This document shows, in pieces, positions 5,093 to 59,335 of a stretch of 64,000 bases of DNA. Source of the stretch: Anaerolineae bacterium (GTDB lineage: Bacteria; Chloroflexota; Anaerolineae; CG2-30-64-16). The stretch covers positions 28,327 through 92,326 of the forward strand of contig JAXGQB010000020.1 of the NCBI GenBank assembly GCA_040766655.1, read 5' to 3'. Each line of letters begins with the position of its first letter. Position 1 is the stretch's first letter. The position numbers were made by a program, and so were the translations under genes. Under the pieces are notes generated by a model that worked only from the letters and a program-made list of their open reading frames with translations, was not told the origin of the DNA and made no database searches.

Positions 5093-5123
5093 GAAGGTTT
5101 CCTCAAATGTGTTGCCGGGGGTA

Positions 5124-5152
5124 TTGACAACCCGATGTTGATACTATACACT
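5124..5152 (+). promoter_or_regulatory. Candidate sigma70-type promoter for the GntR/B12-binding operon
   Basis: TTGACA at 5124-5129, a 17-nt spacer, then TACACT at 5147-5152 (alternatively TATACA with a 15-nt spacer). About 110 nt upstream of the GTG at 5266. Confidence 0.45.
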
Positions 5153-5171
5153 TATATATATAAGATGTCAA
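5143..5171 (-). promoter_or_regulatory. Candidate sigma70-type promoter for the corrinoid methyltransferase operon
   Basis: On the minus strand: TTGACA (5171-5166), a 17-nt spacer, then TATAGT (5148-5143). It lies about 50 nt upstream of the ATG at 5092. Its -10 overlaps the -10 of the plus-strand promoter. Confidence 0.55.
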
Positions 5172-5265
5172 GTGTCATTTGGCACGAATCGCCCGTGAGT
5201 TTGACGGGCAAGGCGCTCGAGGGTAGACTTTTATCGGCCCTTCTTCCACACCGCCGAGGCACGCC

Positions 5266-6048
5266 GTGAGCACCGTTCGCGTTGAGGAACATCAAAGCAC
5301 GACCCGCCTGGACCGTGACTCGTACGAGCCGGCCTACGCGCAGATCGTGCGCATCCTGAGCGAGGAGATCGCTTCGGGGCGCTACCGCCCCGGCGATCAA
5401 CTGCCCTCGGAATCGCAGCTGTGCGCCCGCTTCGACGTCAGTTCCATGACCATCCGCCGCGCCATGAACATCATGGTGGACCGGGGGACGGTGATCGCAT
5501 CGCAGGGCAAGGGCGTGTTCGTGCGCGGCCTCGACATGGGCGAGGCCGCCTTCAAGCTGCGGGAGCGGAACGACGCGGGCGTGCGCGCGGCGTTTGCGGC
5601 CGCCCAGCGGGAGGTGCGCCTGCTTCAGGCCGCGATTTTGCCGGCAGACGACCGGGTGGCGCGCAAGCTGGACATTGAGCCGGACGGCAGAGTCATCTAT
5701 CTCCGCCGGCTGGTGCACATCGCGGGCGACCCGGTCATGTATCACCGCGAGTACCTCCGCTATGACCCACGCCAGCCGTCCGTCGAGGCCGAGTTGCAGA
5801 TCACCTCGCTGGAAGGGCTGTTCCGCGGGCAGGACGGGCAAGGGCTGCGCCGGGGCGATCTGACCGTCGAGGCGGTCGTGCTCACCGAAGAAGAGGCCGA
5901 GATCCTGCAGTGCCCCGCCGGCTCTCCCGCCTTCTGCCTGGAGCACATCTTCTACGATTTCGAGAACCGGCCGGTCGCCTGGGGCCGGTTCATCTGCCGC
6001 GCGGACCGCTACAGCCTGGTTGGCCGCATCGGCGCCGACATTTCGTGA
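5266..6048 (+). CDS. GntR-family transcriptional regulator, HutC subfamily (winged HTH plus UTRA domain)
   Basis: 260 aa. N-terminus YAQIVRILSEEIASGRYRPGDQLPSESQLCARFDVSSMTIRRAMNIMVDRGTVIASQGKGVFV. GTG start with GAGG upstream. Confidence 0.9.
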   Translation: MSTVRVEEHQSTTRLDRDSYEPAYAQIVRILSEEIASGRYRPGDQLPSESQLCARFDVSSMTIRRAMNIMVDRGTVIASQGKGVFVRGLDMGEAAFKLRERNDAGVRAAFAAAQREVRLLQAAILPADDRVARKLDIEPDGRVIYLRRLVHIAGDPVMYHREYLRYDPRQPSVEAELQITSLEGLFRGQDGQGLRRGDLTVEAVVLTEEEAEILQCPAGSPAFCLEHIFYDFENRPVAWGRFICRADRYSLVGRIGADIS

Positions 6049-6063
6049 ATGTGGAGCTGAAAG

Positions 6064-6741
6064 ATGCGCGATGAAGTGAGGAGGAAGCTCCGCGACGCGG
6101 TCGCCGATCTCGAGGAGAACGAGGTGCTGGCGACCGTGCGCGCCTGCATCGATGCGGGCGACGACCCGGCCGCGGCCATCGCGGCCTGCGAGGAAGGCAT
6201 GCGCCTGGTCGGCGAGCGCTACGAGCAGCACGAGTACTACCTGTCCGGCCTGATCATGGCAGGCGAGATCTTCCGCGAGGTGCTGGAGTTGGCCCAGCCC
6301 GCGCTGCAGGCGAGCCTGGCCGGTCACTCGAGCGGCAAGGTGTTGATCGGTACGGTCCAGGGCGACATCCACGACATCGGCAAGGCCATCTTGCAGATCG
6401 CGCTGCGCTCCTACGGCTTCGAGGTGGAGGACCTCGGCGTCGACGTGCCGCCGCAGGTCTTCGCCAGGCGGGCCGCCGAGTGGCAGCCCGACATCGTCGG
6501 ACTCTCCGGCCTTCTCTCCACGGCCTACGACACGATGCGCGAGACCGTCCAGCTCCTGCGCGCCACGGCTGGGGGCGGCGCGGCCGTGCCCATCCTCATC
6601 GGCGGCGGGCTGATCGACGAACGGGTGCGCGGCTACGTCGGCGCGGACTACGCGTGCAGCAACGCGCTGGAAGGCGTGCGCCTGTGCCAGCAACTCATGG
6701 ACGCGCGGCGCGCGGGTGACGCGGACGGCGCCGGCGAGTGA
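6064..6741 (+). CDS. Stand-alone B12-binding protein (corrinoid-protein architecture) co-transcribed with the GntR regulator
   Basis: 225 aa with a helical N-domain (GERYEQHEYYLSGLIMAGEIF), GDIHDIGKAIL (DxHxxG), GLSGLL and LIGGG. Starts 16 nt after the GntR stop and has a GGAG RBS. Confidence 0.85.
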   Translation: MRDEVRRKLRDAVADLEENEVLATVRACIDAGDDPAAAIAACEEGMRLVGERYEQHEYYLSGLIMAGEIFREVLELAQPALQASLAGHSSGKVLIGTVQGDIHDIGKAILQIALRSYGFEVEDLGVDVPPQVFARRAAEWQPDIVGLSGLLSTAYDTMRETVQLLRATAGGGAAVPILIGGGLIDERVRGYVGADYACSNALEGVRLCQQLMDARRAGDADGAGE

Positions 6742-6873
6742 ACGACACGGCAGAACTGACGATCCATGGTACGATAGGGCCGGACCGAGATGGCCGGTGG
6801 GCCCTCGCGCGCTGTGCGCGACGGACCGCGCGCCAGCCACCCATCCTCAGGGCGAACCCCAGGGTGAGACACC

Positions 6874-7737
6874 ATGCGCAGCGAACAGACCATGCTCGAC
6901 CTGATCCTGGACACGGCCCGGGGCGATGACCGCATCCGGGCCGCGATCATGAACGGCTCGCGCACAAACCCAAACGCGCCGCGCGACCCCTTCCAGGATT
7001 TCGACATCGTCTATCTCGTCACCGACGTCGCGCCGTTCAGGCATAACCTCGCCTGGATCGGGCGTTTTGGGGAATTGATGATCCTGCAGATGCCCGACGA
7101 GATGGGGAGCCCGCCGCCCCTCCACGAGCACCGCTTCTGCTATCTCATGCAGTTCACCGACGGCAACCGCATCGACCTGAGCGTCGTCGAGGCCGCCGTG
7201 CTGCCCGAGCTACCGCGCGACAGCCTCAGCGTGCTCCTGCTGGACAAGGACGGGATCGTCCCACCCTTCCCCCCGCCGCACGAGGGTGATTACCTGCCCG
7301 AGCCGCCCACGATGAAGGCGTTCGCGGACTGCTGCAACGAGTTCTGGTGGGTGTGCCCTTACGTGGCCAAGGGGCTGTGGCGCGGCGAGCTCACCTATGC
7401 CCGCCACATGCTTGACGAAGCCGTGCGCGCGGAGCTCATGCAGATGCTGGAGTGGCACGTGGGCGCGCAGACCGGGTTCTCACGCAGCCCAGGCAAGCTC
7501 GGGAAGTACCTCCAGCGCTACCTGGCGCCGGAGTTGTGGGATCTGCTGCGCGCGACCTATACCGACGCAGAACACACCTGGGACGCGCTGTTCGCCATGG
7601 GCGAGCTATTTCGTAGCGCGGCACGGGGTGTCGCAGATCACTTCGGCTTCGACTACCCGCAGGGCGACGACGACCGCGTGACCGCACACCTGCGGCACGT
7701 GCGGTCGCTCCCTCGCGACGCACAGGAGATCTACTGA
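6874..7737 (+). CDS. aadK: Aminoglycoside 6-adenylyltransferase, ANT(6)/AadK family
   Basis: 287 aa. MRSEQTMLDLILDTA..DDRIRAAIMNGSRTNPNAPRDPFQDFDIVYLVTDV and CCNEFWWV..YVAKGLWRGEL match the B. subtilis AadK pattern over the whole length. Confidence 0.85.
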   Translation: MRSEQTMLDLILDTARGDDRIRAAIMNGSRTNPNAPRDPFQDFDIVYLVTDVAPFRHNLAWIGRFGELMILQMPDEMGSPPPLHEHRFCYLMQFTDGNRIDLSVVEAAVLPELPRDSLSVLLLDKDGIVPPFPPPHEGDYLPEPPTMKAFADCCNEFWWVCPYVAKGLWRGELTYARHMLDEAVRAELMQMLEWHVGAQTGFSRSPGKLGKYLQRYLAPELWDLLRATYTDAEHTWDALFAMGELFRSAARGVADHFGFDYPQGDDDRVTAHLRHVRSLPRDAQEIY

Positions 7738-8018
7738 GGATCGCTCGCTACTCCGCCTCGATACGATCGTAGCACAGGGGCAACGGCAGGACAACCGGTC
7801 TGCGCCGGCTGCGCGACCGCGCATTTGCAGGAGCTCATTGCGTCGAATGGGAACCAATGGCACTTAAAGCACAGTCGTGATTCCCTACAATGCGCTGCAG
7901 CACCTGGGACGCGCTCACTCCCACGCCACTCTCTCCGTGGCTGCTGCCAGGTCTGCGAATTCCTCGTCCCGGGCGTCCTGATCGCAGGCCGCGATCAGGA
8001 GAAGTAGGTACACGGGAC

Positions 8019-10058
8019 ATGTTGCGCGATCATCCGAAGCAGCGACCATGGTGGTCTTGGACCCTGGCAGCCATTGCGGTGCTGGCCTTGGCGCACCTTG
8101 CCGGTGGACCGGCACATGCCTCCACGATCACCGTGGCGCCAGGGGCTGCGGACATCAACGCGGGGGACGGGCTTTGCTCGCTCGGTGAAGCCGTTGCCAA
8201 CGCTAACGACGATGCCGCCACCCATGCGGATTGTGCTGCAGGGAACGGCGCGGACACCATCGAACTGGGCGCGTCGTCAGACTACGAGTTCACCACCGGC
8301 ACGGCGAGCGCGCTGGTGATCAGCGACGAGTTGGTCATCAACGGCAACGCTGCCACCGTCCGCCAGACCGGCAGCGCAAACCGGCGCTTGATCACCAACC
8401 TCTCGGGCACCATCCTTGTACTGCGCCACCTGACGCTGCAGGATGGTTACACCTTCGAGAATGGCGGCGCCATCGCCAACAGCGGTGATCTGACGGTCAC
8501 GAACGTCACGTTCGACGGCAACTCCGCACTCATGAATGGCGGCGCCATCTTCCTCTCCGCCAGCAGTCCCGGCGCCGCACTACGCGTCCAGAACGCCACG
8601 TTCACCGGCAACGCAGCGATCGGCACCGGGAGCGGAGGCGCCATCTATGCCAGTGGCAGCAACTTCAGCTTCCTGGTCCGCGACAGCACCTTCGATGACA
8701 ACCGCGCGCTGAACGGTGGCGCGATCTACCTCTCCCAATCCCCGGCTACCGGCCTGATCGCGTACTCGACGTTCACCGGCAACCGTGCCTACTCCAACGG
8801 GGGTGCGATCTACCTGAGTTCCTCCCTGTCGAACGCCATGCGGCTGGATCACCTCACATTGACGGGCAACCAGGCTGACTCGGCCGGAGGCGGCCTCTAT
8901 CTCAGTGTCTCGGCCGAGATTGCCTCCAGCGACCTATCGCTGAACACGGCAGGCACATCGGGCGGAGGGATTGCAACGTCCAGCGCGTTAACCCTCACGC
9001 AGGTGTCGCTGCGTGACAACAGCGCAGCCGTCAATGGAGCCGGGCTAAACGTCATTCTTGTCAGCACCAGTCCGAGGGTCATCCGCTACAGCGAGATCAG
9101 CGGCAACAGCGCGGGCAACAACGGCGGCGGCATGGCAGTTATCGAGGGCGGTGCGGTCAACCTGTCGCACAGCACGATCAGCGGCAACGATGCAGCCAAC
9201 GATGGCGGCGGCCTCTTTTTGGAGCGCGCGACGGCCCAGCTCAGCTTCAGCACCCTGATGAACAACACGGCAGGCAGCGACGGCGGCGGGTTCCACGCCA
9301 TGGCCACCTTCGACGCCGCCGAAGTCTTGCTGCGCAACACCATCAACCTGAACAACAGCACGCCCGCCACGGGCTTCTATGACTGTTCGGCGTTCGGGGC
9401 TGGCGTCACCGTCACCACGCAGGGCTACAACCGCTATTCCGGCAGTGCGCTCAGCGGCTGCGCCGCCTACCTCACGGATCCGACCGACGACTTCGTAAGC
9501 ACGCCCAGCGTTTATGTCGATCTTGCTCTCATTGACAACGGCGGGCCGACGCTGACCCACGAGATCTTCGCCGTGCAGGGCGATCCCAAGAGCTTCCACA
9601 ACCAGGTCCCGGATGGCGCCAACGGCTGCCAGGCGGGAGCCACGCTCGACCAGCGCGGCTACACCCGAGCGGGCGGGCCGGGAGCCGGAGGCAGCCGGTG
9701 TGACATCGGCGCGTATGAAGTGAGCGATTTCTGTGCCACCCCATCGGCGCCGGATGTGGCCATCGAACTCGCCGGCAGCGCCGTCACCCTCTCGTGGACG
9801 CAACCGGCCGGCAACTTCAGCACCGAGATCTGGCGCGCGCCAGATCCCTACTTCGATCCTAATACGCCTGGTGGCCGCCTGCCCTACAATACGGTGGACA
9901 CGACGTACGAGTTCGACGCCGCTGCGGGCTTCCAGGAACCGGCCAATCCGGCCCTGAACCAGTTTTACGTCGTGCGGGGGGTTTCTGGGTGCGGCTTTGT
10001 GTCGTCTGGCGTGGACCGGGTAGGCGAATTCGACTTCGCACTCACCCCAGGCAGCTGA
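8019..10058 (+). CDS. Secreted right-handed beta-helix repeat protein (GGAIY/PMP-like repeats) with a C-terminal FN3-like domain ending in GEFDFALTPGS
   Basis: The ORF track starts at 7890. The ATG at 8019 gives a signal-peptide-like WWSWTLAAIAVLALAHLAGGPAHA. CSLGEAVANANDD...DTIEL head, then more than 12 repeats of the N-GGAI/GGG-x type. Confidence 0.8.
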   Translation: MLRDHPKQRPWWSWTLAAIAVLALAHLAGGPAHASTITVAPGAADINAGDGLCSLGEAVANANDDAATHADCAAGNGADTIELGASSDYEFTTGTASALVISDELVINGNAATVRQTGSANRRLITNLSGTILVLRHLTLQDGYTFENGGAIANSGDLTVTNVTFDGNSALMNGGAIFLSASSPGAALRVQNATFTGNAAIGTGSGGAIYASGSNFSFLVRDSTFDDNRALNGGAIYLSQSPATGLIAYSTFTGNRAYSNGGAIYLSSSLSNAMRLDHLTLTGNQADSAGGGLYLSVSAEIASSDLSLNTAGTSGGGIATSSALTLTQVSLRDNSAAVNGAGLNVILVSTSPRVIRYSEISGNSAGNNGGGMAVIEGGAVNLSHSTISGNDAANDGGGLFLERATAQLSFSTLMNNTAGSDGGGFHAMATFDAAEVLLRNTINLNNSTPATGFYDCSAFGAGVTVTTQGYNRYSGSALSGCAAYLTDPTDDFVSTPSVYVDLALIDNGGPTLTHEIFAVQGDPKSFHNQVPDGANGCQAGATLDQRGYTRAGGPGAGGSRCDIGAYEVSDFCATPSAPDVAIELAGSAVTLSWTQPAGNFSTEIWRAPDPYFDPNTPGGRLPYNTVDTTYEFDAAAGFQEPANPALNQFYVVRGVSGCGFVSSGVDRVGEFDFALTPGS

Positions 10059-22357: not shown

Positions 22358-22927
22358 ATGAGACGACTCTACCTGCCGGCGGCACTGTTGCTCGCCCTGC
22401 TGCTGACCGGCACGGCCCTGGCGCAGACCAGCGAGCCTTATGACCTGAGTTGGTGGACGCTGGACGGCGGCGGCGCGCTCAGCGAAGGCGGCAACTACGC
22501 GTTGAGCGGCGCCATCGGGCAGCCGGACGCCGGCGGACCACTGAGCGGCGACGCCTACGAGGTTACTGGCGGCTTCTGGCTGGCCGACCGGGCTTCGCCC
22601 CTGGCAGTTGTGGACCTGCGTGGCTCGGAGGACGGTGGCCTGCTGCGCCTGGACTGGAGCCCCGTGACACTGGATACCGCAGGCGACAGCATCGCCGGCG
22701 TGAGTTACAGCGTCTATCGCTCTGCCAGCCAGCCATACTTCACGGCGGATTTAGCCTACAAGAGCGAACTGACGGAACCAAAGTTCCAGGACCCGGATCC
22801 AACCGTCATCGATAACTTCGCAGCCAGCCACTACTACCTGGTCCGCGCCGTCCACGGCGCTTCGATGTCGACCGACTCGAACCGGATCGGCGTCTTTGCC
22901 TTCGGCCTCACGCCCGGCGCCCAATGA
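22358..22927 (+). CDS. Small secreted protein: Gly-rich N-domain plus FN3-like domain ending in IGVFAFGLTPGAQ (cassette 1, gene 1)
   Basis: Signal peptide MRRLYLPAALLLALLLTGTALAQ. YDLSWWTLDGGG...NYALSGAIGQPDAG...YEVTGGFW. GGAGG RBS. Paralog of 50051-50575. Confidence 0.8.
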   Translation: MRRLYLPAALLLALLLTGTALAQTSEPYDLSWWTLDGGGALSEGGNYALSGAIGQPDAGGPLSGDAYEVTGGFWLADRASPLAVVDLRGSEDGGLLRLDWSPVTLDTAGDSIAGVSYSVYRSASQPYFTADLAYKSELTEPKFQDPDPTVIDNFAASHYYLVRAVHGASMSTDSNRIGVFAFGLTPGAQ

Positions 22928-22947
22928 GAAGGATAGGAGCATTCATC

Positions 22948-24672
22948 GTGACAAAGAGAAACCTGCTGCACTTGTTGGCAGTCGTCGTATTAGTGTTGAC
23001 CTTCAGCGGCACATCCCAGGCCCAGGAGGGGTCAGCGCAGGCCGAGGCGAGTGCACTCGCCACCGCGGCGGGCACGAACTTCACCTACCAGGGTCGACTC
23101 ACGGTCGGCGGAATCCCGGCCAACGGCAGGTACGACTTCGAGTTTCAGCTCTTCACTGCGCCGGGCTCCGGCGGCACGGCGAGCGATGTCGTAGCCATCA
23201 TGGGCCAGACGGTCACAGGTGGCCTGTTCACGGTCGAACTCGATTTCGGCGAGGTGTTTCGCGGGAACGCCATCTACCTGGAGGTGCGCGTGCGGGCATC
23301 CGGCAGCGGCGAGGCCTTCACGCCGCTCACGCCGCGCCAGGCGATAACGGCTGCACCCTACGCGCAATTCGCGCTCAAGACAGCCGCACACGATCACTTC
23401 GGCGACACGTGGACAGGATCAAGCGGCGCGGATGGTCTCCGGTTGCAGCACACGGCTGCGAGCGGCGCCAGAAGCGGCGTCTCTGCGAGCAGCGCCAGCA
23501 CCCAGGGCACGGGCGTCCTCGGGGAGGCCACCGCGACCGATGGAACCACATACGGCGTGCGGGGTGTGAACAGCAGCCCTCAAGGCGCAGGCGTGTTCGG
23601 AGAATCCACGGATGGCGTGGGCACCGCACCAGGGGTCAGGGGCAGGACGACCAGCCAGAATGCAAGTGGTGTCCGCGGCGACAATGACGATACCATAGGC
23701 TACGGTTTCGGCGTGTGGGGACGCAGCAGCAGTCCCTATGGCGGGGGCGTCGCTGGCACGGGGAACATGTACGGGGTCTATGGCGAAACCCAGACGACCT
23801 ACGGCAGGGGCGTGCATGGCGTCAACATTGCCGAAACCGGCATCAATTTTGGGGTGTACGGAGAGAGCCTGAGCACCAGCGGCACAGGGGTGTACGGCGT
23901 TGCGTTTAACTCCAACGGCTCCAACTACGGCGTGAGGGGCGAGTCCAACAGCGAGAGCGGAGTTGGCGTCCACGGCAAGGTCCCCATGGACAGCCTCGGT
24001 GCAGGCGTCGTCGGCGAAGGGAGCACGGGCGTCCGCGGGACTTCCGATGGTCCTCAGGGCATCGGTGTCGTAGGTTTCGCTACCAGCAGCACCGGCGTCA
24101 ATTACGGCGTTTGGGGGGTGACCAATAGCGCCACGGGCTATGCGGGCTATTTTGGCGGCCAGGTGCAGATCGACGGCACGCTCAGCAAGGCGGGCGGCTC
24201 GTTCAAGATCGATCATCCCCTGGACCCGGAGAACAAATACCTGTCCCATTCCTTCGTCGAGTCGCCAGATATGATGAATGTCTACAACGGCAACGTCACC
24301 CTGGATGGGAACGGCGAGGCGCAGGTGGCGCTGCCTGACTACTTCGAGGCGCTGAACCGCGACTTCCGCTACCAGCTCACCCCCATCGGTGGCTGGGCGC
24401 CGATCTACATCGCGCAGGAGATCGAGGGCAATGCTTTCCGAATCGCCGGCGGCGAACCCGGGCTGAAGGTCTCGTGGCAGGTGACGGGCATCCGCCAGGA
24501 CGCCTGGGCGGAGGCGAACCGCATCGTCGTGGAAGAAGCGAAGACGGCCGAGGAGCAGGGCCGCTACCTCCACCCAGAGGCGCTGGGTCAACCGAAGAGC
24601 CTGGACGTGGACTACGAGCGTGAGCGCCAACTTTTGGAGCGGTCCGAGGCCAGCAGGGCCACCGACCGCTGA
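22948..24672 (+). CDS. Secreted fibre-like protein: FTYQGRL head, 13-residue GV-G-S-S--G repeats and a conserved C-terminal FKIDHPLDP domain (cassette 1, gene 2)
   Basis: The track ORF starts at ATG 22924 (ATGA overlap). GTG 22948 has an AGGAG RBS and gives a start (V/M)TKRNLLHLLAVVVLVLTFSGTSQA that parallels the paralog at 50678. The C-terminal ~160 aa are highly similar to the paralog. Confidence 0.8.
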   Translation: MTKRNLLHLLAVVVLVLTFSGTSQAQEGSAQAEASALATAAGTNFTYQGRLTVGGIPANGRYDFEFQLFTAPGSGGTASDVVAIMGQTVTGGLFTVELDFGEVFRGNAIYLEVRVRASGSGEAFTPLTPRQAITAAPYAQFALKTAAHDHFGDTWTGSSGADGLRLQHTAASGARSGVSASSASTQGTGVLGEATATDGTTYGVRGVNSSPQGAGVFGESTDGVGTAPGVRGRTTSQNASGVRGDNDDTIGYGFGVWGRSSSPYGGGVAGTGNMYGVYGETQTTYGRGVHGVNIAETGINFGVYGESLSTSGTGVYGVAFNSNGSNYGVRGESNSESGVGVHGKVPMDSLGAGVVGEGSTGVRGTSDGPQGIGVVGFATSSTGVNYGVWGVTNSATGYAGYFGGQVQIDGTLSKAGGSFKIDHPLDPENKYLSHSFVESPDMMNVYNGNVTLDGNGEAQVALPDYFEALNRDFRYQLTPIGGWAPIYIAQEIEGNAFRIAGGEPGLKVSWQVTGIRQDAWAEANRIVVEEAKTAEEQGRYLHPEALGQPKSLDVDYERERQLLERSEASRATDR

Positions 24673-43681: not shown

Positions 43682-43692
43682 AAGGAGAGTTT

Positions 43693-49487: not shown

Positions 49488-50050
49488 TGAGGCGCCCCAC
49501 GGAACCAAGGGAACCCACCGTGGCAGCGGCGGATCACCCAACCGCTGCCATCTCCCGGACCTCGTGCCTGCAATCCAGCGCCACCACAACATCCAATTCG
49601 AACTGGCGGCCCTGCCGCGGGGCGACCCCGCGGTGGGGGTCGGTCACCTTCACGGGCGATCCGTCAATGGGAGCGACGCGGGCGGCCAAGGCATGCGGGG
49701 CAGGACGAACGACATGCAATGCCTCCCACAGCGCCTCTGCGCCGCCACCCAGCAGCAGGCCGCGAGGCACGTCACGATCGGGCGCCGGGGCGTCGAGGTG
49801 CAGACAAACACCTGCTTGCATTCTATCGCCTGGTCAGTCCCTGTCAAGAGTCAAGACGGCCGGACGAGCGGATCGTCCAACGCTACCGGCCGTGGCGGAC
49901 ATTGTGATTTCTCGCATCAAACGCTAACGAAACGGTACGTCTGCTACGCTGGCCCCCGAAGTCGGCCCTCGATATCGGAGAGCGACATCCGTCCCTGACA
50001 TCACTACGTCGCGCTGGGCGACAGCTTCACTGAGAGGATCGGTGATCAAG

Positions 50051-50575
50051 ATGAACAGGCTACCTCGAGTCTTGCCCTTGGCCCTCCTGTTCCTCGTGCT
50101 CGTGCCAGCCCTGGCCCTGGCACAGTCGGGCGGGCCATATGACCTCTCCTGGAGCACGATCGACGGCGGCGGCCACACCTTCAGCGCGGGCGGGTCGTAC
50201 GAATTGGGCGGCACGGCCGGACAGGCGGACGCCGGGTTGATGAGCGGCGGCAACTACGAGCTCAGCGCCGGCTTCTGGCTGTGCGTCACCGCGGAGGTGG
50301 CCGCCGCAGGTATCGCAACCAGCGGCGCAACCGTCACCCTGACCTGGACCGCCGGCGAGCCGACGGCCAACATCTACCGCGGCCAGGACGATCCCTACTT
50401 CACGCCGGGTGCGGTCTATGCCGGCGGGGTAAGCAGCGGTTGGACCGATACCGGTGCGGCCGGCAACCCCGCGCACAACGACACCTACATCATCCGCGCC
50501 CAGGGCGGCTGCGGCGAGTCGGCCGACAGCCGGCGGCTGGGCGAGTTCGATTTCGCCCTGACCCCCGGGACTTGA
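50051..50575 (+). CDS. Small secreted protein: Gly-rich N-domain plus FN3-like domain ending in LGEFDFALTPGT (cassette 2, gene 1)
   Basis: MNRLPRVLPLALLFLVLVPALALAQ signal (the track ORF begins at GTG 50042). YDLSWSTIDGGG...SYELGGTAGQADAG...YELSAGFW. Paralog of 22358-22927. Confidence 0.8.
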   Translation: MNRLPRVLPLALLFLVLVPALALAQSGGPYDLSWSTIDGGGHTFSAGGSYELGGTAGQADAGLMSGGNYELSAGFWLCVTAEVAAAGIATSGATVTLTWTAGEPTANIYRGQDDPYFTPGAVYAGGVSSGWTDTGAAGNPAHNDTYIIRAQGGCGESADSRRLGEFDFALTPGT

Positions 50576-50677: not shown

Positions 50678-52666
50678 ATGCATACACGAAAAACACTGGC
50701 GTTGATGCTGGCGCTGCTGATGGCATTAAGCGCGCTGGCTGGCGGCGTGGCTGCCGCACAGGCGCCGGCGGAGGCGGGGCCGGCTGGCATCGGGCCCGAA
50801 GCGGCTCTCGCCGCCGTGAGCACCGGCTTCACGTACCAGGGACGGCTGACCGACGCCGGCAACCCAGCCGCCGGTCCCTATGACTTCGTGTTCCGGCTGT
50901 ACGATGCGCTGACCGGCGGCAGCCAGGTGGGCGGGATCGTCACCCAGGGCGACGTGGCCGTCAGCAACGGCCTGTTCACGGTCAGCCTGGATTTCGGTGT
51001 GGTCTTCGACGGCGCCGCGCGCTGGCTGGAGATCGCCGTGCGGCCAGGGGCCAGCAATGACGCCTACGCAATCCTCAGCCCGCGGCAGGCGCTGGCGGCC
51101 ACGCCCTATGCCCTTCACTCGTTGAGCACGGCAGCCCACGACCACTTCGGCGAGACGTGGACCGGCGCGACGGTTGGCGATGGCCTGCGGGTGGAAAACA
51201 CGGCCGCAAGTGGCTACGCCTACGGCGTCACCGGCCAGAGCGCCAGCACCAGCGGCCGCGGCGTCTACGGCTATGCCAGCGCGGCCAGTGGTACGACCTA
51301 TGGGGTGCAAGGCCAGTCTGCCAGCACAGATGGCCGTGGGGTGTATGGTCTGGTCACGACCAGCAGCGGGCCAGCCTCAGGCGTCTTCGGGGAGAGCACC
51401 AGCACCGGCGGCCGCGGCGTCTACGGCAGAGCGACGGCCACCAGCGGCCAGGCCTTCGGGGTGCACGGCGTGTCGGCGAGCAGCAACGGCCGCGGCCTGT
51501 ACGGGCACGCCACGTCCGCCAGCGGCTCGACGTACGGTGTGGTCGGCGAGACCGAGAGCACGACCGGCGCCGGCGTGCAAGGCATTGCCTCCTCCTTCAC
51601 CGGCATCAACTATGGCGTGTGGGGTCTGTCCCCCAGCACCGCTGGCACCGGGGTGCTGGGCCAGGCTTCAGCCGCCACCGGCACCACCTTCGGCGTTTAT
51701 GGCCAGTCCTCCAGCGACCAGGGTTACGGAGTGTACGGCGTGACCTGGGCGAACACGGGCGTCACCTATGGCGTGTACGGCAGGGCCCTGAGCACCAGCG
51801 GCTACGCCGGCTATTTCACGGGCAAGGGACCCGATGCCGTGGTCGTCACAAACACCGGCGCCGGCCGAGGGATCTCCGTCGAAACCTCCACCGACACGGC
51901 GATCTGGGCCATAACCGACGCCGGCCTTGCCGCCGTCGACGGCCGCGCGGCCGGTGCAACCGGGCGGGGCCTGTACGGCTTCGCTACAGCCGCAGCCGGT
52001 GCGAACTCAGGGGTGTACGGCCGCACCGCCAGCACCGACGGCCGCGGGGTCTACGGCTGGGCTGAAGCCACCAGCGGCACCAACTACGGGGTGTACGGGC
52101 GCACCAGCAGCGCCTCCGGCTATGCCGGATACTTCCAGGGCAACCTTCGCACGACCGCCACGCTGACCAAGGCGGCCGGCTCGTTCAAGATCGACCACCC
52201 ACTCGATCCGGCAAACCAGTATCTCTCCCACTCGTTCGTCGAGTCGCCCGACATGATGAACCTCTACAACGGTAACGCCGTTCTGGATGCCCAAGGCGAG
52301 GCCACGGTAATCCTGCCCGAGTGGTTCGAGGCGCTGAACCAGGACTTCCGCTACCAGTTGACGCCCGTCGGCGCGGCCATGCCCAACCTGTACGTCGCGC
52401 AGAAGGTTCAAGACAACACGTTCCGGATCGCGGGCGGCGTGCCCGGCATGGAGGTCTCCTGGATGGTGACCGGCATCCGTCACGATGCCTACGCCAACGC
52501 TCACCGCATCCCAGTGGAAGAGCAGAAGCCGGCAGAGGAGAGGGGTCTCTACCTGCACCCCACCGAACTGGGCCAGCCGGCAGAACTGGGGCTGGATCAT
52601 CAGCGGGACACTGACCAGTCGCAGCAGAACGGACCAGGCATACCGGGGCAAGCCGCAACGAAGTGA
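50678..52666 (+). CDS. Secreted fibre-like protein with 13-residue repeats and a conserved C-terminal FKIDHPLDP domain (cassette 2, gene 2)
   Basis: GGAGGAG RBS. Signal MHTRKTLALMLALLMALSALAGGVAAAQA. FTYQGRLTDAGNPAAGPYDF head and more than 20 GV-G-S-S--G repeats. The C-terminal domain aligns with 24190-24672 at high DNA identity by eye. Confidence 0.85.
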   Translation: MHTRKTLALMLALLMALSALAGGVAAAQAPAEAGPAGIGPEAALAAVSTGFTYQGRLTDAGNPAAGPYDFVFRLYDALTGGSQVGGIVTQGDVAVSNGLFTVSLDFGVVFDGAARWLEIAVRPGASNDAYAILSPRQALAATPYALHSLSTAAHDHFGETWTGATVGDGLRVENTAASGYAYGVTGQSASTSGRGVYGYASAASGTTYGVQGQSASTDGRGVYGLVTTSSGPASGVFGESTSTGGRGVYGRATATSGQAFGVHGVSASSNGRGLYGHATSASGSTYGVVGETESTTGAGVQGIASSFTGINYGVWGLSPSTAGTGVLGQASAATGTTFGVYGQSSSDQGYGVYGVTWANTGVTYGVYGRALSTSGYAGYFTGKGPDAVVVTNTGAGRGISVETSTDTAIWAITDAGLAAVDGRAAGATGRGLYGFATAAAGANSGVYGRTASTDGRGVYGWAEATSGTNYGVYGRTSSASGYAGYFQGNLRTTATLTKAAGSFKIDHPLDPANQYLSHSFVESPDMMNLYNGNAVLDAQGEATVILPEWFEALNQDFRYQLTPVGAAMPNLYVAQKVQDNTFRIAGGVPGMEVSWMVTGIRHDAYANAHRIPVEEQKPAEERGLYLHPTELGQPAELGLDHQRDTDQSQQNGPGIPGQAATK

Positions 52667-53881: not shown

Positions 53882-56800
53882 ATGCGACAACACCAGTTTG
53901 AGCTCGGATCGGCCAGGCAACCGTGGCAAGCCCTCGCCGTCCTCTGCGCCGCCATCCTGCTGGTGCTCGCCGTGGCGGGCCCCGTGCTGGCCGGGCAAGA
54001 CCCGGCCAGCGTCCACGCGCCCGCCGCCTGCGTGCCGCTGACCGGCCCGAACCAGATCGCCTCGCCCATGGTCGTCACCTTCGATGACCTGCCGGCCGGT
54101 TCGAGCATCGGCAGCTTCTACCAACGCACCCACGGCATCCGGTTTGAGGACAGCCGCACCGCACGCGTGATCGCTTACGATCATCCGTCGCCTCGCTCCG
54201 CGCCCATGACCGCGATGAGCCAGACCGACGGAGATCCCGCTGCCAGGGCTCTCAACTTCTACTTCGACTCACCTCAAGCCTCCGTTGGCCTGTTCGCGGG
54301 CAACGGCGGCGGCGCGTCCGCGGCCCGGCTGGAGGGCTTCGACGCGGACGGCAACCTGGTCTGTGCGGCCAACGCAACCAACGTGTCGGACGCCCACACC
54401 GCGTTCATCGGCTTCCGCGATGACACCCGGAGCATCGTCAGCGTATCGCTGACCTACACCACCGGGCAGGCTGAATCGCTGGACGACCTGAGCTTCAGCA
54501 GTGTTGTCCAACCGCACGCCACACCGACGCCGTCGGCGACACCTACGCCGTCACCGACTCGCCCCGCGGCCGCGACAGCGGCTCTCTTCATCTTCCCAGC
54601 CGCGGCCGCGCCCGGCGGTGCACCTGCCGTCAGCGGCTACGGCTTCCCCGCGCTCGCTGATCTCAGGTTGATACTGGCCTGTCCCGGCCAGGCGGAGCTC
54701 GACCTGAGAGCGGCGGGCACGGACGCGGGGGGCCGCCTGCGGACCGTGATCGAGTTGCCGGCCTACCCGCCCAACCCATGCATGCTGGCCGCACGCCTGG
54801 ACCGGGCCAACCTCGCCGAGACCGCACTGGCGCTGTTGCCGGCGCTGGAGCTCTCCACCTCGCCCCAGGCCGGACCGCCGGGCACGACCGTCAGCTTCAC
54901 CGTGCGCAACCTCAGCGCGGGCGAGCTACGGCTCGACTACGCGGGGCGCGCGGTCTTCGGCCCGACGCCGGTCGCAGCCGGCGCCTTCTCTGGCACGTTC
55001 ACTGTCCCGCGCGACCGGCCCGATCCCCTGGGCAGCACGGCTGACCTCCGCGCCACGAACCTGATCCTGGGCCGGGCCATCGGCGCGGTCACCGGCGCCT
55101 TCCGCTCCCAGACCGCTCCGCCGCCGCCCACCTACCGCGTGGCAGACCTGCAACTGCCGCCGGGGACTCTGCCGCCGGGCAGTGATTTCGCCATCACCGG
55201 ACGCATCAGCCCTGCGCCGCAGGGGGCGCCGAGCCAGCTCAGGGTGTTGCCGGTGTGGCGAAAGGCCGATGGCCGCACCTTCCCCATCGGCCGCGGCCCG
55301 GCCCAGATCGCCGCGGACGGCAGTTTCAGCGTACCTATACGTGTGCCGAGCCTGCTCACCGGCGATCCGACCTGGCCACAGAGCGGCGATCAGGTAGGCG
55401 TGATGCTGGTGACCGGCGCGAACCAGCCGCGGCCCTTCCTGCAGGCCATCGCGGGCGTGCCCATCTTCCCCACCTTCAACGTCAAGGTGGTCGACGCGGC
55501 GACGGGGCAACTCATCCCGTCGGCCAAGGTCAGCTTCGAGGCCTGGCAGGGTTATCAGGTCAGTGCGAACTCGCTGCCGCTGGGCGAAGTTTCCGCCGAG
55601 GCTGCCATCGGCATCACCAACCAGATCGCCCAGGCCGGTGGCGCGATCGATCTGACGGATGACGAAAAGGCCTGGATCGCCTTGACGAAAGCCGTCTGCC
55701 AGCCGCTCACCATCCCTGTGAACGGCGATAAGTGGCAGCTGATCAACCCCACCCTGGACCAGACCCTCAGCGAGCCTTCGGTGCAGGGGCTGCTCCTGGC
55801 AAACAGCGTCCTTGGGGAGGCCGCGGTGACTGCGGGCCAGTCGGTAGGAAACGGGGCGACGCTGGCGCCGGCCGTTAGTGCTGCCGGCGACGTCATCCCC
55901 TACCTGCTCACCGTGGACGCACTCGACGCGGGCTACGGCCTGAAAGTTGCAGACGCTGACGGCACCTTCACGTTGAAAAACCTCAGCCTGCACGTCAATT
56001 TCCACCTGGCCGATCTCACCTACCGCGATCTGAAGGGCAACATCCTGGCCAACCCGTACACCGTGAAGCTGGGCAAGCTCTCCTCCGGCGAACAGTCAGC
56101 CCTGGGACCAATCAAGGTCTTCCTGGCCGGCATCGGCGCGCCCGAGCTGCCAGGGCCGGCCGCGCTGCCCCGCTTCACCCGCTACTACTCGGTGAAGGAC
56201 GTACCGCCCGGCGTGCAGGTGACGAAGCAAGCCGATGGCAGCGTTCAGATCACCCTGTCGTACGCCCAGTTCCACAAGCTGGGCGCCGGGGGTATACAGC
56301 TCTACGTGGACGGCGCCTGGAAGGCCAACTTCACGACCAAGTTCAACCCCGGCCTGGCCTGCAAGAACGGAACCATCACCTGGACGAGCGAGCCGTTCTA
56401 CGAGGGCAAGGCCGTGATCCCCAACGCCCACCTGCTGGCACCCGGTTCGCGCGCCCTGCAGGTGCGGGCACAACTCCTGGACGGCCAGTGGTTTAACTAC
56501 AACTACGTCCTGCAAGTGGATGCAGTGCCTGCCTCCTGGTTTGCCGTGAAGGCCAAAGGGACGCGCACCCTAACCTGGCGTCCTGGCGAGGTCAAGCTCT
56601 TCACCACCTGGCTCCAGGCGGGGACGGACGGCCAACTGCTGCACTCTGATCCAGTCAAGACTGACGAGACCGGCCAGTTGGACAACCGCACGATCCCGAC
56701 CAACAACATCAGCCAACAGGCCCAGGCCAACGGCCACAAGGGCGGGCAGACAACGGGCCAACTCTCGGGTCAGGCCCTGAACCGTTACGGACAGGGCTGC

Positions 56801-59335
56801 AATCTCAGCAACTGCCCGGCAAAAACGTCTGCTGTTGCCGCAGAGACGTTGCGTGCAACGTCTCTGGAATCACCGGCCGCCGGCCCTGCCGCCAACTACT
56901 CCTATGGCCCCTACAAAGAGAACGTCGTGCCGGAGGTCACCTTTGATTTGCCCGAAGTCAAATACGGCATCCCGTTCGTGGCCGAGATCGCGGCCGGCGG
57001 CAGCATGTCGTACTCGGGCAGCGTCACTTACGCAGGCTCCGCCACGCTCATGGACGACGGCGCGGTGCAGAGCATACTGTCAATCGATCCGGAGGCCAAT
57101 GTCAGCGGCACGGTCTACGTGGAGGGACGGCTGTTGGCGGGGCTGATCGGCAAGGCCGGCGCCTCGCTCACCGCCAATTTCGACGTGCACATGCCCGTCA
57201 CCTACGACACGGCCAAGAGCGACCCGCTCACTGCTAGCGCTTACTTCGAGTACGGCGCCGATTTTAAGGCGTGGCACAAGTGGGGCTGCGTGCCCTACGC
57301 CGGCTGCGCGTACAGCAAGACCTACCCCAAGCATCTCTTCGACGGCTGCGAAGTGCTAACCGGCTCCGGCGGTTGTCCTGCAGCGACGAGCGCGCAGGCG
57401 GCGGGAAGCATCGCCGCAGCTGACCCGCCCCAGTTCGACCTACAGCTCGCGGCCAACGGCCAGGGCACGGTGATGGCCATCTGGCAGCAGACTCCCACCA
57501 GCCTGGCAGCCGCAATCTTCAATGGCGTCGCCTGGACTCCGGCAGGGGACATCGCCACCGGTCTCGGCAGCTCGCAGCCCCAGGTCGCGTTCCTTGGTCC
57601 GAATCGCGCCATCGCCGTCTGGACCGAGACGAACCTGACCGAGGCGCAGTTGCCCGGCCTGACCGGCGAAGAGTTGTTGCAGGCGCAGCGCATCGCCTAC
57701 GCCATCTGGAACGGCACGTCCTGGTCTGCCGGCCAACCCCTGACCACACCCGGCCTGGGTGAGGGGGGCCCCGCGCTGGCCGCCTGCCCTGCGGGGCAGC
57801 CAGGCTGTCCGGCCGGCGGCGCGGCCGTGGCCGTCTGGGAACGCAATCTCTCGCCCAACCTGGAGGCGCGCGCTATCCGCCTGGTCCACGCTCGCTACCA
57901 GGACGGCGCCTGGAGCGCACCGCAGCCGGTGGACGGCGCCAGCGCGTTCACCGACATCCTGCCCCAGGTCGCGTTCATCAACGGTGCACCGCTGGTTGCC
58001 TGGGTGCGCGACAGCGATGCCGAGCTCGCCGACGCCAGCTCCCGCCGCGTCGCCCTAAGTTTTCTGAACGGGGCTGAAACCTTCACGCCCGCCGAACTGC
58101 CCGCAGGCATCGGCGAGGTGGCGCTGGGCATGGATGGCGCGGGCCAGCCAGTGCTGGCCTTCACCCAACTGGAGAACCCGCAGCAACTGCTGAGCAACCG
58201 GCGCCCCCTGTGGGCGGCAGCAGTGACGTGCTCGGGACCGACGGCCTGCACCTGGCATCCGGTCAAGCTGACGGACGCGGCCGGCCGCACTCTCTACGCA
58301 GAGCAGCCCTTGCTGGCCACCGATGCGGCAGGACAGGTCAGCGTGACCTTCCGGGGGACGGGCTTCGGCGGGCCGGCGAACGTCCAGCCGGGCGATTCGC
58401 CCGGAATGACCAGCGGTCAGGGCGACCTCGCCCAGGCCGTGGTCAACTTCGCCACGGGCCAGGTCGCGCCGAAATACCTGACCCAGGACGGCGCGGTCAA
58501 CTGGCTGCCCGCCGCGGCTTACGACCCGCTGCTGGGCGTCTCGCTGGCAACAGCGGTCAAGGGCAGCGCCGTGGCCGGCGCAACGGGTGCGGCGCAGACG
58601 GACGGCGCCCAGTACAGCCCTGCGCCCGACCTGCCCATCGCAGCAGCGGTCGCGCCGGCCCTGCCCGACTTCGTCCTGGTGGCTGCGACGGTGAGCGGCG
58701 GTCCTGCGACCGGCGACCCGCTGAGGGCGATCGTGCAGATTGCCAACCGCGGCGCGGCGTGGCCTGGCTCGGACGAGCAACCATTGGAGATCGTTGCAGG
58801 CTGGGACGGTGCGCCGGGCATCGGCGTCCCTGCGGGGCAAGCCGCCCTGACCAGCCTGGGCGCGTCCCCGTTCGTCACGGTGACGCTCGACCTGGCGCCG
58901 CCGCCTGGGGGACTGGACCTGGCTCACGAACTGCATCTGGCAGTCAACCCAGGCCTGCCCATCGCAGAGAGGGACGCGGCGAACAACAGCGTGATCCACA
59001 CGGCAGGCCGCCTTCCTGCTCCCTTGCTCCCGTGGGTGCAGATGGAGCCCGGCAGCCCCCTGGTCTTCCTGGGCTGGGACCCGGTGGCAGATCGGCGGGT
59101 CGCGGGCTACCGCATCTACCGCTCGGAGGCGGGCGGCGCCTGGGCGCCGATCGGCGGCAGCTTCGCGCCGGGCTACGTGGATCTGTCAGCGACCTCGGGC
59201 CGCACCTACAGCTACGCGATCACTGCGTATGCCGAGAGCGGCATCGAGTCGCCCTTGAGCCAGGAAGCCAAGGTGACAGTTCCGCCCCTGCGCGTCTACC
59301 TGCCGTTGGTCATGCGAAGCACAGGGAGACAATAG
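53882..59335 (+). CDS. Giant secreted adhesin-like protein (1817 aa) with Pro/Thr linker, repeated beta-rich modules, CARDB-like and FN3 domains, and a C-terminal PPLRVYLPLVMRSTGRQ tail
   Basis: AGGAGG RBS plus ATG 53882 gives a signal-anchor WQALAVLCAAILLVLAVAGPVLAG. The track ORF start (53483) overlaps the DinB gene and is rejected. CARDB-like LPDFVLVAATVSG...IANRG region, then FN3 (GYRIYRSEAGG...YSYAITAY). Confidence 0.85.
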   Translation: MRQHQFELGSARQPWQALAVLCAAILLVLAVAGPVLAGQDPASVHAPAACVPLTGPNQIASPMVVTFDDLPAGSSIGSFYQRTHGIRFEDSRTARVIAYDHPSPRSAPMTAMSQTDGDPAARALNFYFDSPQASVGLFAGNGGGASAARLEGFDADGNLVCAANATNVSDAHTAFIGFRDDTRSIVSVSLTYTTGQAESLDDLSFSSVVQPHATPTPSATPTPSPTRPAAATAALFIFPAAAAPGGAPAVSGYGFPALADLRLILACPGQAELDLRAAGTDAGGRLRTVIELPAYPPNPCMLAARLDRANLAETALALLPALELSTSPQAGPPGTTVSFTVRNLSAGELRLDYAGRAVFGPTPVAAGAFSGTFTVPRDRPDPLGSTADLRATNLILGRAIGAVTGAFRSQTAPPPPTYRVADLQLPPGTLPPGSDFAITGRISPAPQGAPSQLRVLPVWRKADGRTFPIGRGPAQIAADGSFSVPIRVPSLLTGDPTWPQSGDQVGVMLVTGANQPRPFLQAIAGVPIFPTFNVKVVDAATGQLIPSAKVSFEAWQGYQVSANSLPLGEVSAEAAIGITNQIAQAGGAIDLTDDEKAWIALTKAVCQPLTIPVNGDKWQLINPTLDQTLSEPSVQGLLLANSVLGEAAVTAGQSVGNGATLAPAVSAAGDVIPYLLTVDALDAGYGLKVADADGTFTLKNLSLHVNFHLADLTYRDLKGNILANPYTVKLGKLSSGEQSALGPIKVFLAGIGAPELPGPAALPRFTRYYSVKDVPPGVQVTKQADGSVQITLSYAQFHKLGAGGIQLYVDGAWKANFTTKFNPGLACKNGTITWTSEPFYEGKAVIPNAHLLAPGSRALQVRAQLLDGQWFNYNYVLQVDAVPASWFAVKAKGTRTLTWRPGEVKLFTTWLQAGTDGQLLHSDPVKTDETGQLDNRTIPTNNISQQAQANGHKGGQTTGQLSGQALNRYGQGCNLSNCPAKTSAVAAETLRATSLESPAAGPAANYSYGPYKENVVPEVTFDLPEVKYGIPFVAEIAAGGSMSYSGSVTYAGSATLMDDGAVQSILSIDPEANVSGTVYVEGRLLAGLIGKAGASLTANFDVHMPVTYDTAKSDPLTASAYFEYGADFKAWHKWGCVPYAGCAYSKTYPKHLFDGCEVLTGSGGCPAATSAQAAGSIAAADPPQFDLQLAANGQGTVMAIWQQTPTSLAAAIFNGVAWTPAGDIATGLGSSQPQVAFLGPNRAIAVWTETNLTEAQLPGLTGEELLQAQRIAYAIWNGTSWSAGQPLTTPGLGEGGPALAACPAGQPGCPAGGAAVAVWERNLSPNLEARAIRLVHARYQDGAWSAPQPVDGASAFTDILPQVAFINGAPLVAWVRDSDAELADASSRRVALSFLNGAETFTPAELPAGIGEVALGMDGAGQPVLAFTQLENPQQLLSNRRPLWAAAVTCSGPTACTWHPVKLTDAAGRTLYAEQPLLATDAAGQVSVTFRGTGFGGPANVQPGDSPGMTSGQGDLAQAVVNFATGQVAPKYLTQDGAVNWLPAAAYDPLLGVSLATAVKGSAVAGATGAAQTDGAQYSPAPDLPIAAAVAPALPDFVLVAATVSGGPATGDPLRAIVQIANRGAAWPGSDEQPLEIVAGWDGAPGIGVPAGQAALTSLGASPFVTVTLDLAPPPGGLDLAHELHLAVNPGLPIAERDAANNSVIHTAGRLPAPLLPWVQMEPGSPLVFLGWDPVADRRVAGYRIYRSEAGGAWAPIGGSFAPGYVDLSATSGRTYSYAITAYAESGIESPLSQEAKVTVPPLRVYLPLVMRSTGRQ

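Follow-up and report, generated by a model that had tools for sequence, protein, structure and literature searches.

A C-terminal FN3-fold domain shared by diverse secreted proteins of Chloroflexota, a probable surface-targeting or attachment module

Why do secreted proteins of different build, encoded tens of kilobases apart, end in nearly the same residues? The 64,000-nucleotide stretch of DNA analysed here (the window) encodes three proteins, A, B, and C, with near-identical tails at 10020-10055, 22886-22924, and 50537-50572, exactly where the original prediction had placed them. Filamentous Chloroflexota of the Anaerolineae type are abundant in sludge, sediments, and hot springs, where they act as degraders, and almost nothing has been established about the way in which their hydrolases are displayed or released. 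Most of these bacteria are uncultured, and a recognisable C-terminal tag would allow sequence-based prediction of their surface exoproteome.

Gene A (8019..10058, plus strand) encodes a secreted parallel β-helix protein. Its frame opens at 7890 (a 722-aa ORF, 7890..10058), and the likely start is the ATG at 8019, giving the signal peptide MLRDHPKQRPWWSWTLAAIAVLALAHLAGGPAHA. The protein contains Chlam_PMP repeats (Pfam, E = 2.3e-18) and matches POMP_repeat (NCBIfam, E = 1.2e-10). A choice-of-anchor Q-like motif (...CDIGAYE; 9633..9722, plus strand) lies directly 5′ of the C-terminal domain; here the model NF041518 scores 24.6 bits, just short of its cut-off of 25, at residues 582–611 and over its last 26 positions only. 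The C-terminal FN3-fold domain spans 9729..10055 on the plus strand (HMM domain 617–725 of the frame) and closes with the tail VGEFDFALTPGS at 10020-10055, the stop codon occupying 10056-10058.

Genes B (22358..22927, plus strand; 189 aa) and C (50042..50575, plus strand; 177 aa) encode short proteins. In B a signal peptide and a Gly-rich mini-domain precede the FN3 C-terminal domain (at about 22589-22924), whose tail is the variant IGVFAFGLTPGAQ (GVFAFGLTPG) at 22886-22924. C, a paralogue of B, carries the domain at about 50273-50572 and the tail LGEFDFALTPGT at 50537-50572. B and C align over their full length with 40% identity (BLASTP, E = 1e-28), and A and C share 40% identity across 120 aa (BLASTP, E = 2e-16). 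The description of the three proteins as otherwise unrelated does not hold for B and C; since these are full-length paralogues, the domain is found in the window on two architectures, a β-helix protein and a short cassette protein, and not on three. A six-frame HMM search of the window finds exactly three copies, those of A, B, and C. The window has two matches to a degenerate codon pattern for GEFDF[AG]x[TVAI]PG, where 100 shuffles give an expectation of 0.00. Judged at the sequence level, the likeness of the three domains is far beyond chance.

Both cassettes include a fibre-like repeat protein with a signal peptide. The partner of B (22924..24672, plus strand; 582 aa) shares its first 4 bp with the end of gene B and has no match in Pfam, NCBIfam, or PHROGs; the partner of C lies at 50678..52666 (plus strand; 662 aa), and neither fibre-like protein matches PHROGs or PDB sequences. 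The adjacency of a short domain-bearing protein and a fibre-like neighbour is kept at four further loci in the genomes surveyed. We also considered C as the CPR pilus tip pilin PamT (compared with preprint 10.64898/2026.03.03.709456), which NCBIfam matches at 20.7 bits, far under its cut-off of 240, and only over the signal peptide and Gly-rich region; a Pam-type pilus found no further support and was dropped.

AlphaFold2 models of the A and C domains are seven-stranded β-sandwiches, and their best Foldseek matches in the PDB are FN3 domains (integrin β4 FnIII-3, FN3con, and the FN3 domain of POMGNT2; TM-scores of about 0.55–0.64), in line with the fold that had been proposed from the letters. 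The pLDDT is 83 for the domain of A, whose tail is less confident (about 73), and 93–97 for the C-terminal domain of C, whose N-terminal mini-domain reaches about 45. In the model of C the tail is placed within its own FN3 fold at a pLDDT of about 93, which identifies it as the last FN3 strand of a specialised subfamily and lends no support to the proposal that it is a strand-donating motif. Cys6 and Cys89 covary (21/22, p = 7e-8); this points to an extracytoplasmic disulfide, and the domain may often be disulfide-bonded.

The domain comprises about 105 aa and ends, in the proteins of the window, with (V/L)GEFDFALTPG-x-stop, apart from the variant of B. The signature of the family reads LxW ... 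YxVxRxxxPYFxP ... GDPxxNYxYxV ... (R)VGEFDF(A/G)(L/I)(T/V)PG, followed by 0–2 residues and the stop codon. That GEFDF hardly varies among the genome matches is due in part to the codon pattern used for the search, and the profile-based matches include the variants GVFSF, GAFVF, GTFNF, and GKFTF. No model in Pfam or NCBIfam recognises the domain of A, B, or C. The Pfam fn3 model (PF00041) has no match to any of the three at E ≤ 1, and matches 1 of 113 domain sequences (E = 0.006). In a reverse search, the family profile matches thousands of FN3-repeat proteins across positions 8–98, so that the FN3 body of the family is ordinary; with a 28-sequence profile searched against representative proteins, the best 150 matches are giant multi-FN3 proteins covering profile positions of about 8–98 only, and they do not represent a census of the family. 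With generic FN3 domains of bacterial extracellular enzymes the domain shares its fold, the Trp of strand B, and the Tyr corner of strand F, whereas the PYFxP loop, GDPxxN, and the terminal strand GEFDFALxPG are specific to the family described here. The domain is a distinct, uncatalogued family despite its FN3 fold, and would provide annotators with a new domain model.

A, B, and C close with ...TPGS, ...TPGAQ, and ...TPGT and have no hydrophobic segment there, and no PEP-CTERM, LPXTG, or other sortase or exosortase model of NCBIfam matches the three proteins, which agrees with the exclusion of such signals in the original prediction. T9SS CTD models (type A, TIGR04183, and type B) likewise match neither the full proteins at E ≤ 1 nor the isolated domains at E ≤ 10 (NCBIfam).

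A survey of genomes with the degenerate codon pattern and HMM support, whose figures refer to the matches listed, yields at least 118 family loci. A stop codon follows 0–5 residues past PG in 117 of the 126 codon-pattern matches listed, and 109 of the 116 HMM-supported copies listed (about 94%) stop no more than 6 residues short of where the reading frame closes. In a separate profile search, all 58 of 58 matches terminate 0–2 residues from the C-terminus. The last strand of a generic FN3 domain, found internally as often as at the end, had been named as the case that would speak against a dedicated tag; the tail is indeed the last FN3 strand, but its position is almost always terminal. Truly internal or tandem copies number 6–7 among the matches listed (about 5%), and a signal strictly needing a free C-terminus would not permit them. 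Carriers in genomes are mostly 400–1500 aa long; two alignment-based protein searches gave only proteins of up to 328 aa, apparently through a word-index effect and not as a real length distribution.

The distribution also bears out the expected lineage restriction. The true matches among those listed come from 33 assemblies, 32 of them Chloroflexota, represented by MAGs of Anaerolineae, Caldilineales, Ardenticatenaceae, and Promineifilaceae, and the FN3 body is absent from the four matches that are off frame or come from other phyla. Three MAGs contain at least 15, 13, and 10 copies, respectively.

As anticipated, the carriers are signal-peptide proteins, and they are of very diverse kinds. 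Among the 63 full-length carriers an N-terminal signal peptide is present in most, and their cargo includes Beta_helix (11) and Peptidase_C25 (7) proteins as well as NosD, S8, M14, M28, α-amylase, PhoD, ExeM nucleases, and LTD. In 8 of the 63 a choice-of-anchor Q segment, a family named by NCBI for adjoining alternative anchors, stands directly 5′ of the domain (NF041518, up to E = 2e-41). Identity between domains on very different cargo families is 30–45%, with a surface-exposed Glu and Asp near-invariant. Most carriers are not beside fibre-like genes.

Region 9729-10055 specifies the closing domain of a Sec-exported β-helix protein. We consider it probable that this domain is a shared, lineage-specific C-terminal surface-targeting or attachment module of Chloroflexota. 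The terminal position, the lineage restriction, and the diversity of carriers suit the predicted sorting or attachment role, while the roughly 5% of internal copies do not suit a strict C-terminal secretion signal. The cargo would leave the cell by Sec and then fold outside the membrane, where a common partner would recognise the invariant edge strand and the C-terminal end (the exposed Glu and Asp and the terminal PG) and retain or place the cargo at the filament surface. B and C could serve as adaptors, the Gly-rich N-terminal part binding the adjacent fibre-like protein and the C-terminal domain providing the anchor. The mechanism may be non-covalent anchoring or PorU-like processing, in which the domain might be cleaved.

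The best candidate for such a partner or processing enzyme, for which a co-distributed gene had been proposed as a search target, would be the PorU-like C25 cysteine peptidases of related genomes. These occur as tandem pairs that are widely conserved in the lineage, and they are found in at least 12 of 36 assemblies among the matches listed; the 64-kb window itself contains neither a C25 gene nor genes of the T9SS translocon (SprA/Sov, PorV, PorK-N). The C25 proteins match NF033707 with E values of 1e-85 to 1e-92 over model positions 8–736 of 1095, at 186–310 bits, under the 420-bit equivalog cut-off. Their His/Cys dyad aligns with that of PorU (6za2), and both paralogues keep it; one of the two bears the domain, as seen in at least 10 assemblies. 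The C25 peptidases may also simply be further cargo. The genes beside the pair encode SdrD_B-repeat proteins, with no other T9SS-like gene seen there. The last ~100 aa of these neighbours (...GVYTYRLEIVRLDGGVERYG...) look like a T9SS CTD, but have no NCBIfam match at E ≤ 10.

The C25 peptidases end in one of two ways, with the domain of the A/B/C family or with the motif that NCBIfam calls the YLP-box putative sorting motif, which has the form [LIV][YF]LP[LIV][LIV]x[RK] at the extreme C-terminus. The domain closes 16 of 120 C25 homologues. Most of the others appear, by inspection, to have a YLP-box-type tail; 3 of 10 tested passed NF053834, and the YLP-box scores of the C25 homologues are 14.6–17.2 bits. 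The box also occurs in the same lineage on choice-of-anchor Q β-helix proteins, and the YLP-box-type tail is an alternative C-terminal ending in the same protein families. It measures 9–11 residues, in contrast to the folded domain of 105 aa, and the A, B, and C tails do not contain it. Ten of 99 proteins furthermore have a YLP-like box where cargo and domain meet, about 25 times the 0.4 expected. In these carriers, about 10%, it does not replace the domain but sits at its N-terminal boundary, at the position of FN3 strand A; elsewhere it stands alone at the C-terminus after an ordinary FN3 domain.

These features recall the type 9 system of Bacteroidota, in which PorU joins cargo covalently to A-LPS, and raise a possible, if doubtful, alternative that is a sub-case of the surface-module reading with a specific mechanism: the domain would be a T9SS-like cleaved signal, the C25 pair cutting at the YLP box of the cargo/domain junction and the cargo being joined covalently to an envelope glycan. 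Like the domain, the T9SS CTD is a C-terminal β-sandwich of 80–100 aa on many Sec-exported hydrolases and adhesins, a family of one lineage with many copies per genome, and the range of cargo is similar. The PorU-like architecture with its intact dyad, the wide conservation of the tandem pair, the enrichment of the box at the junction, and a C25 paralogue that itself bears the domain, as P. gingivalis PorU bears a T9SS CTD, all speak for such cleavage. The domain, however, has FN3 topology and not the Ig-like fold of the T9SS CTD, matches neither TIGR04183 nor another CTD model, and occurs in internal and tandem copies, while the neighbourhood of the C25 pair offers SdrD_B-repeat proteins alone. 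The translocation role of the CTD would also be without a counterpart, since neither an outer membrane nor a T9SS is known from Chloroflexota. We found nothing relevant in the literature on PorU or T9SS in Chloroflexi, on Chloroflexi sorting signals, or on the YLP box. A broader conjecture, which we regard as rather unlikely, is that filamentous Chloroflexota have an undescribed surface-display pathway, dependent on a PorU-like C25 sortase, in which the FN3-GEFDFALxPG domain and the YLP box can stand in for each other as signals and cleavage falls at the YLP-marked junction. Such a pathway would correspond to the attachment step of the T9SS but lie outside Bacteroidota/FCB, in organisms believed to have no outer membrane. 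Should the PorU-like link hold, sorting of the PorU type would extend beyond the phyla that carry a T9SS.

Docking in the manner of a dockerin, with the domain binding scaffold or fibre-like proteins in a surface complex of enzymes and adaptors, seems quite unlikely to us. Dockerins, SLH domains, and other non-covalent anchors of monoderm bacteria are likewise modular C-terminal tags on many secreted enzymes per organism, and tolerate occasional internal or tandem placement, but their fold and sequence are unrelated to those of the domain, for which no cohesin-like or cell-wall polymer receptor, or any other cognate receptor family, has been identified. The short domain-bearing proteins always adjoin fibre-like proteins, as docking would lead one to expect, whereas most carriers do not. 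A variant of docking could involve β-strand exchange, the YLP-box tails acting as orphan A-strands; the strand A position of the box, its occurrence alone after ordinary FN3 domains, and the mini-domain that is not confidently folded alone are compatible with docking, while the model of C packs both strand A and the tail with confidence inside one and the same domain. We regard it as very unlikely that the domain is an ordinary FN3 stabiliser or spacer without any targeting role, its tail reflecting recent common ancestry and folding constraints and its spread domain shuffling. Extracellular hydrolases of bacteria commonly contain FN3 domains, and the fold, the profile matches to generic repeats, and the internal copies are all consistent with a spacer. 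A spacer gives no reason, however, for the last place of the domain in about 94% of copies, with 0–2 residues past PG; it would not persist on very different cargo at 30–45% identity with the exposed Glu and Asp near-invariant, nor would a single peptidase family be expected to end either in it or in a motif already recognised as a putative sorting signal.

The surface-module reading of the domain family also gives a context for NCBI's still-unexplained YLP-box motif, of which the window holds one example. A large secreted protein (53882..59335, plus strand; about 1817 aa from the ATG at 53882) contains an ordinary FN3 domain followed by a tail of the YLP-box type (...RVYLPLVMRSTGRQ, at 59291-59317), which the models NF053834 (ultrashort_CTERM) and NF050076 (sort_motif_YLP) score at 8.6 and 7.0 bits, both under the cut-off (8.6 against 10).

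The three window proteins that share the C-terminal FN3-like domain are encoded on the forward strand: A, the beta-helix protein (7890..10058), and the short cassette proteins B (22358..22927, 189 aa) and C (50042..50575, 177 aa). The 722-aa ORF of A has a likely start at ATG 8019, from which a classical signal peptide is read. The three ORFs and their tails are located as in the original prediction, and the region assigned to the domain in A (9730-10058) coincides exactly with its last domain and the stop codon. A is 40% identical to C over 120 residues (E 2e-16). The proteins had been described as otherwise unrelated, which fails for B and C: they align over their full length with 40% identity (E 1e-28) and are therefore paralogues. 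A six-frame HMM search of the window found no copies beyond these three; the tail codon pattern occurs there twice versus 0.00 expected from shuffles. On sequence comparison, the C-terminal similarity of the three proteins is well above chance.

The last 112 residues of A are modeled by AlphaFold2 as a seven-stranded beta-sandwich (pLDDT 83), for which Foldseek matched FN3 domains in the PDB, supporting the earlier designation as FN3-like. In a second model, of full-length C, the C-terminal domain has a pLDDT of 93-97; most of the tail (residues 161-170) is at 93 and the last four residues at 76. The tail region in A's own model has lower confidence (pLDDT ~73). In the model of C, the tail is predicted to occupy the G-strand position, packed in its own FN3 fold with no free extension. 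Judging from beta-strand periodicity, the tail residues F, F, and L should point to the core, with E and D exposed on the edge strand. A cysteine near the domain start covaries with a cysteine in the F-G loop (21/22, Fisher p 7e-8), and the pair is present in A and C. This covariation indicates a disulfide and, therefore, an extracytoplasmic location.

No relevant Pfam or NCBIfam match was found for A, B, or C at E<=1, nor for the isolated domains in NCBIfam at E<=10; PF00041 is matched by only one of 113 domain sequences (E 0.006). The family profile has >22,000 protein matches, mostly at profile positions ~8-98 and with giant FN3-repeat proteins as the best. Annotated "fibronectin type 3" proteins match at these same positions, with the tail absent. 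On both counts, the domain body is of the ordinary FN3 type. Specific to the family are L26/W28, Y37, R41, P45-Y46-F47-x-P49, G73-D74 ... N78 ... Y81, and the terminal strand G-E-F-D-F-(A/G)-(L/I)-(T/V)-P-G. C-terminal domains for sorting or anchoring are already known in concept, as is the FN3 fold; the FN3-GEFDF family was found neither in Pfam (2025 copy) nor in NCBIfam r20, nor in the literature within reach of our search.

A profile search of a 5.8-billion-protein set gave 58 matches, in all of which the domain ends 0-2 residues from the C-terminus; those with names come from MAGs of Chloroflexota or Anaerolineales. One genome per species was scanned with a degenerate codon pattern (GEFDF[AG]x[TVAI]PG), which yielded at least 118 loci, and a stop codon lies 0-5 residues past PG in 117 of the 126 matches listed. 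With a whole-domain HMM, 109 copies on the ORFs of the loci listed are terminal and 7 internal, bearing out the proposed C-terminal enrichment. Tail invariance in the codon-pattern set is partly by construction, as the pattern imposes GEFDF; the profile-based matches include the natural variants GVFAF, GAFVF, GTFNF, and GKFTF.

Matches in contigs of Planctomicrobium, Phyllobacteriaceae, and Terriglobales, and one off-frame match, have no FN3 body and are chance matches, expected for such a codon pattern. All but one of the true matches listed are from Anaerolineae, Anaerolineales, Caldilineales, Ardenticatenaceae, Promineifilaceae, or unclassified Chloroflexota MAGs. The exception, L088 (JAAENL010000536.1), in a MAG labeled Halieaceae, has the usual layout of a Chloroflexota cassette locus (a short domain-bearing protein between two fibre-like proteins) and is probably a misbinned contig, because the same study yielded a Chloroflexota MAG. 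Three single MAGs carry at least 15, 13, and 10 copies. The window's nearest relative among the loci listed is a Caldilineales MAG, which is ~80% identical at the nucleotide level over gene C and the genes around it.

Genuine internal or tandem copies (L015:1-3690, L061, L018:2157-3623, L023:349-2811, L085:2-574, and L046:1-1800) are followed, after GEFDFxxxPG, by a 150-270-aa domain, in some cases P-domain- or lectin-like, or by a second copy. The profile-based matches also include a subfamily in which GEFD(F/Y) precedes 15-20 further residues. These are short cassette-type proteins (P0354, P0355, P0360, P0361, P0364, P0365, P0367, P0370, P0376, P0378, and P0389), whose extra residues are unrelated, usually end in R, and take the place of ALTPG.

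Carriers, the proteins bearing the domain, are in genomes mostly 400-1500 aa long, and most of 63 full-length ones have an evident N-terminal signal peptide. Their Pfam families comprise Beta_helix (11), Peptidase_C25 (7), NosD (4), Peptidase_S8 (3), PhoD, LTD, exo/endonuclease, alpha-amylase, M14, M28, GSDH, and Sortilin-Vps10: an exoproteome-type repertoire with one C-terminal module in common. In eight of the 63, the NCBIfam choice-of-anchor Q motif lies directly upstream of the FN3 domain; A scores 24.6 bits for this motif, just below the cut-off of 25.

All seven C25 carriers are matched by the NCBIfam model of the T9SS sortase PorU at E 1e-85 to 1e-90, with scores below the equivalog cut-off; the matches span most of the model's N-terminal and catalytic parts. 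When aligned to the solved PorU structure, 6za2, their catalytic region retains His and Cys. In related loci (L045, L051, L068, L001, L065, and L070; e.g. L051:2067-4751 and 4558-7326), PorU-like genes form tandem pairs of a ~895-aa paralogue ending in the FN3 domain and a ~780-aa paralogue without it, both keeping the His/Cys dyad. SdrD_B/SpaA-fold repeat proteins flank the pairs, those downstream having a C-terminal hydrophobic helix and basic tail. At least 12 of 36 assemblies among the matches listed hold a domain-bearing paralogue or a PorU-like gene adjoining a domain-bearing gene. A third recurrent C-terminal module, ...GVYTYRLEIVRLDGGVERYGxARV..., T9SS CTD-like in appearance and matching no NCBIfam model at E<=10, is shared by SdrD_B-repeat neighbors and many C25 homologues, with a YLP box after it in the latter (L051:1635-1934, L045:6370-6669, L068:708-1007; also P0255, P0258, and P0262).

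With one of the C25 peptidases as query, a homology search retrieved 120 Chloroflexota-type C25 proteins; the FN3 domain forms the C-terminus of the 16 closest alone (>=60% identity). Judged by eye from the tails listed, the rest mostly terminate in [LIV][YF]LP[LIV][LIV]x[RK], an ending already modeled in NCBIfam as the "YLP-box putative sorting motif" (NF053834, NF050076); of ten tails tested, three pass the NF053834 cut-off. At one and the same position, members of a single peptidase family therefore carry either the YLP box or the FN3 domain. In addition, 10 of 99 carriers (0.4 expected) have a YLP-like box precisely where the cargo meets the FN3 domain, often directly after a choice-of-anchor Q motif (...DIGAFEYGxxLYLPLV...). 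A second type of C-terminal ending within the window is seen in a ~1817-aa secreted protein (53882-59335, forward strand; tail 59291-59317), where an ordinary FN3 domain is followed by ...PPLRVYLPLVMRSTGRQ, resembling the YLP-box motif (8.6 bits, cut-off 10).

We favor, as the probable reading, that the FN3 domain is a shared C-terminal surface-targeting or attachment domain. Within it, the parallel to PorU and the YLP box at the junction speak for PorU-like cleavage and attachment, a tentative proposal that we consider rather unlikely, the alternative being non-covalent retention. The apparent pairing of the domain with PorU-like peptidases and the YLP box in Chloroflexota is undescribed in the databases named and the searchable literature. 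A dockerin-like or strand-exchange role of the domain in assembly is improbable. Slightly less probable still is a functionless FN3 spacer, which would leave unexplained why the domain is terminal, why its exposed acidic residues are conserved, and why it alternates with the YLP box.

B and C lie beside fibre-like secreted proteins (22924..24672 and 50678..52666, respectively, forward strand), themselves paralogues. Both have an FTYQGRL... domain at the N-terminus, a conserved domain (SFKIDHPLDPxNKYLSHSFVESPDMMN...) at the C-terminus, and G/YGV-rich repeats of ~22 aa; they have no Pfam, NCBIfam, PHROGs, or PDB match. The adjacency of a short domain-bearing protein and a fibre-like protein, with either one first, is conserved in other Chloroflexota loci (L030, L088, L089, and L096). 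B and C may act as adaptors, giving the C-terminal domain to fibre-like proteins without one. In C, the first ~50 residues, which are Gly-rich, have a pLDDT of ~45; this would fit folding only on a partner. The N-terminal halves of C (50042-50272) and B (22358-22588) contain a Gly-rich duplicated motif, GGxYxLxGxxGQxDAG ... GGxYxLxGGFW, the second copy of which is similar to DIGAYE(F/Y)W, the motif at the end of choice-of-anchor Q domains; the only match of the duplicated motif, to the CPR pilus protein PamT, is sub-threshold (20.7 bits, cut-off 240).

Directly upstream of cassette 1 lies a full-length DUF6909 protein (20309-22024, forward strand; Pfam E 6.5e-216), with a polyphosphate-kinase-like ORF (17976-20183) on the opposite strand. 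Elsewhere in the window, a protein of 2046 aa that combines RHS repeats with a DUF11 domain (37541-43681, forward strand) is followed by a small overlapping ORF (43678-44229), which together could be a polymorphic-toxin/immunity arrangement.
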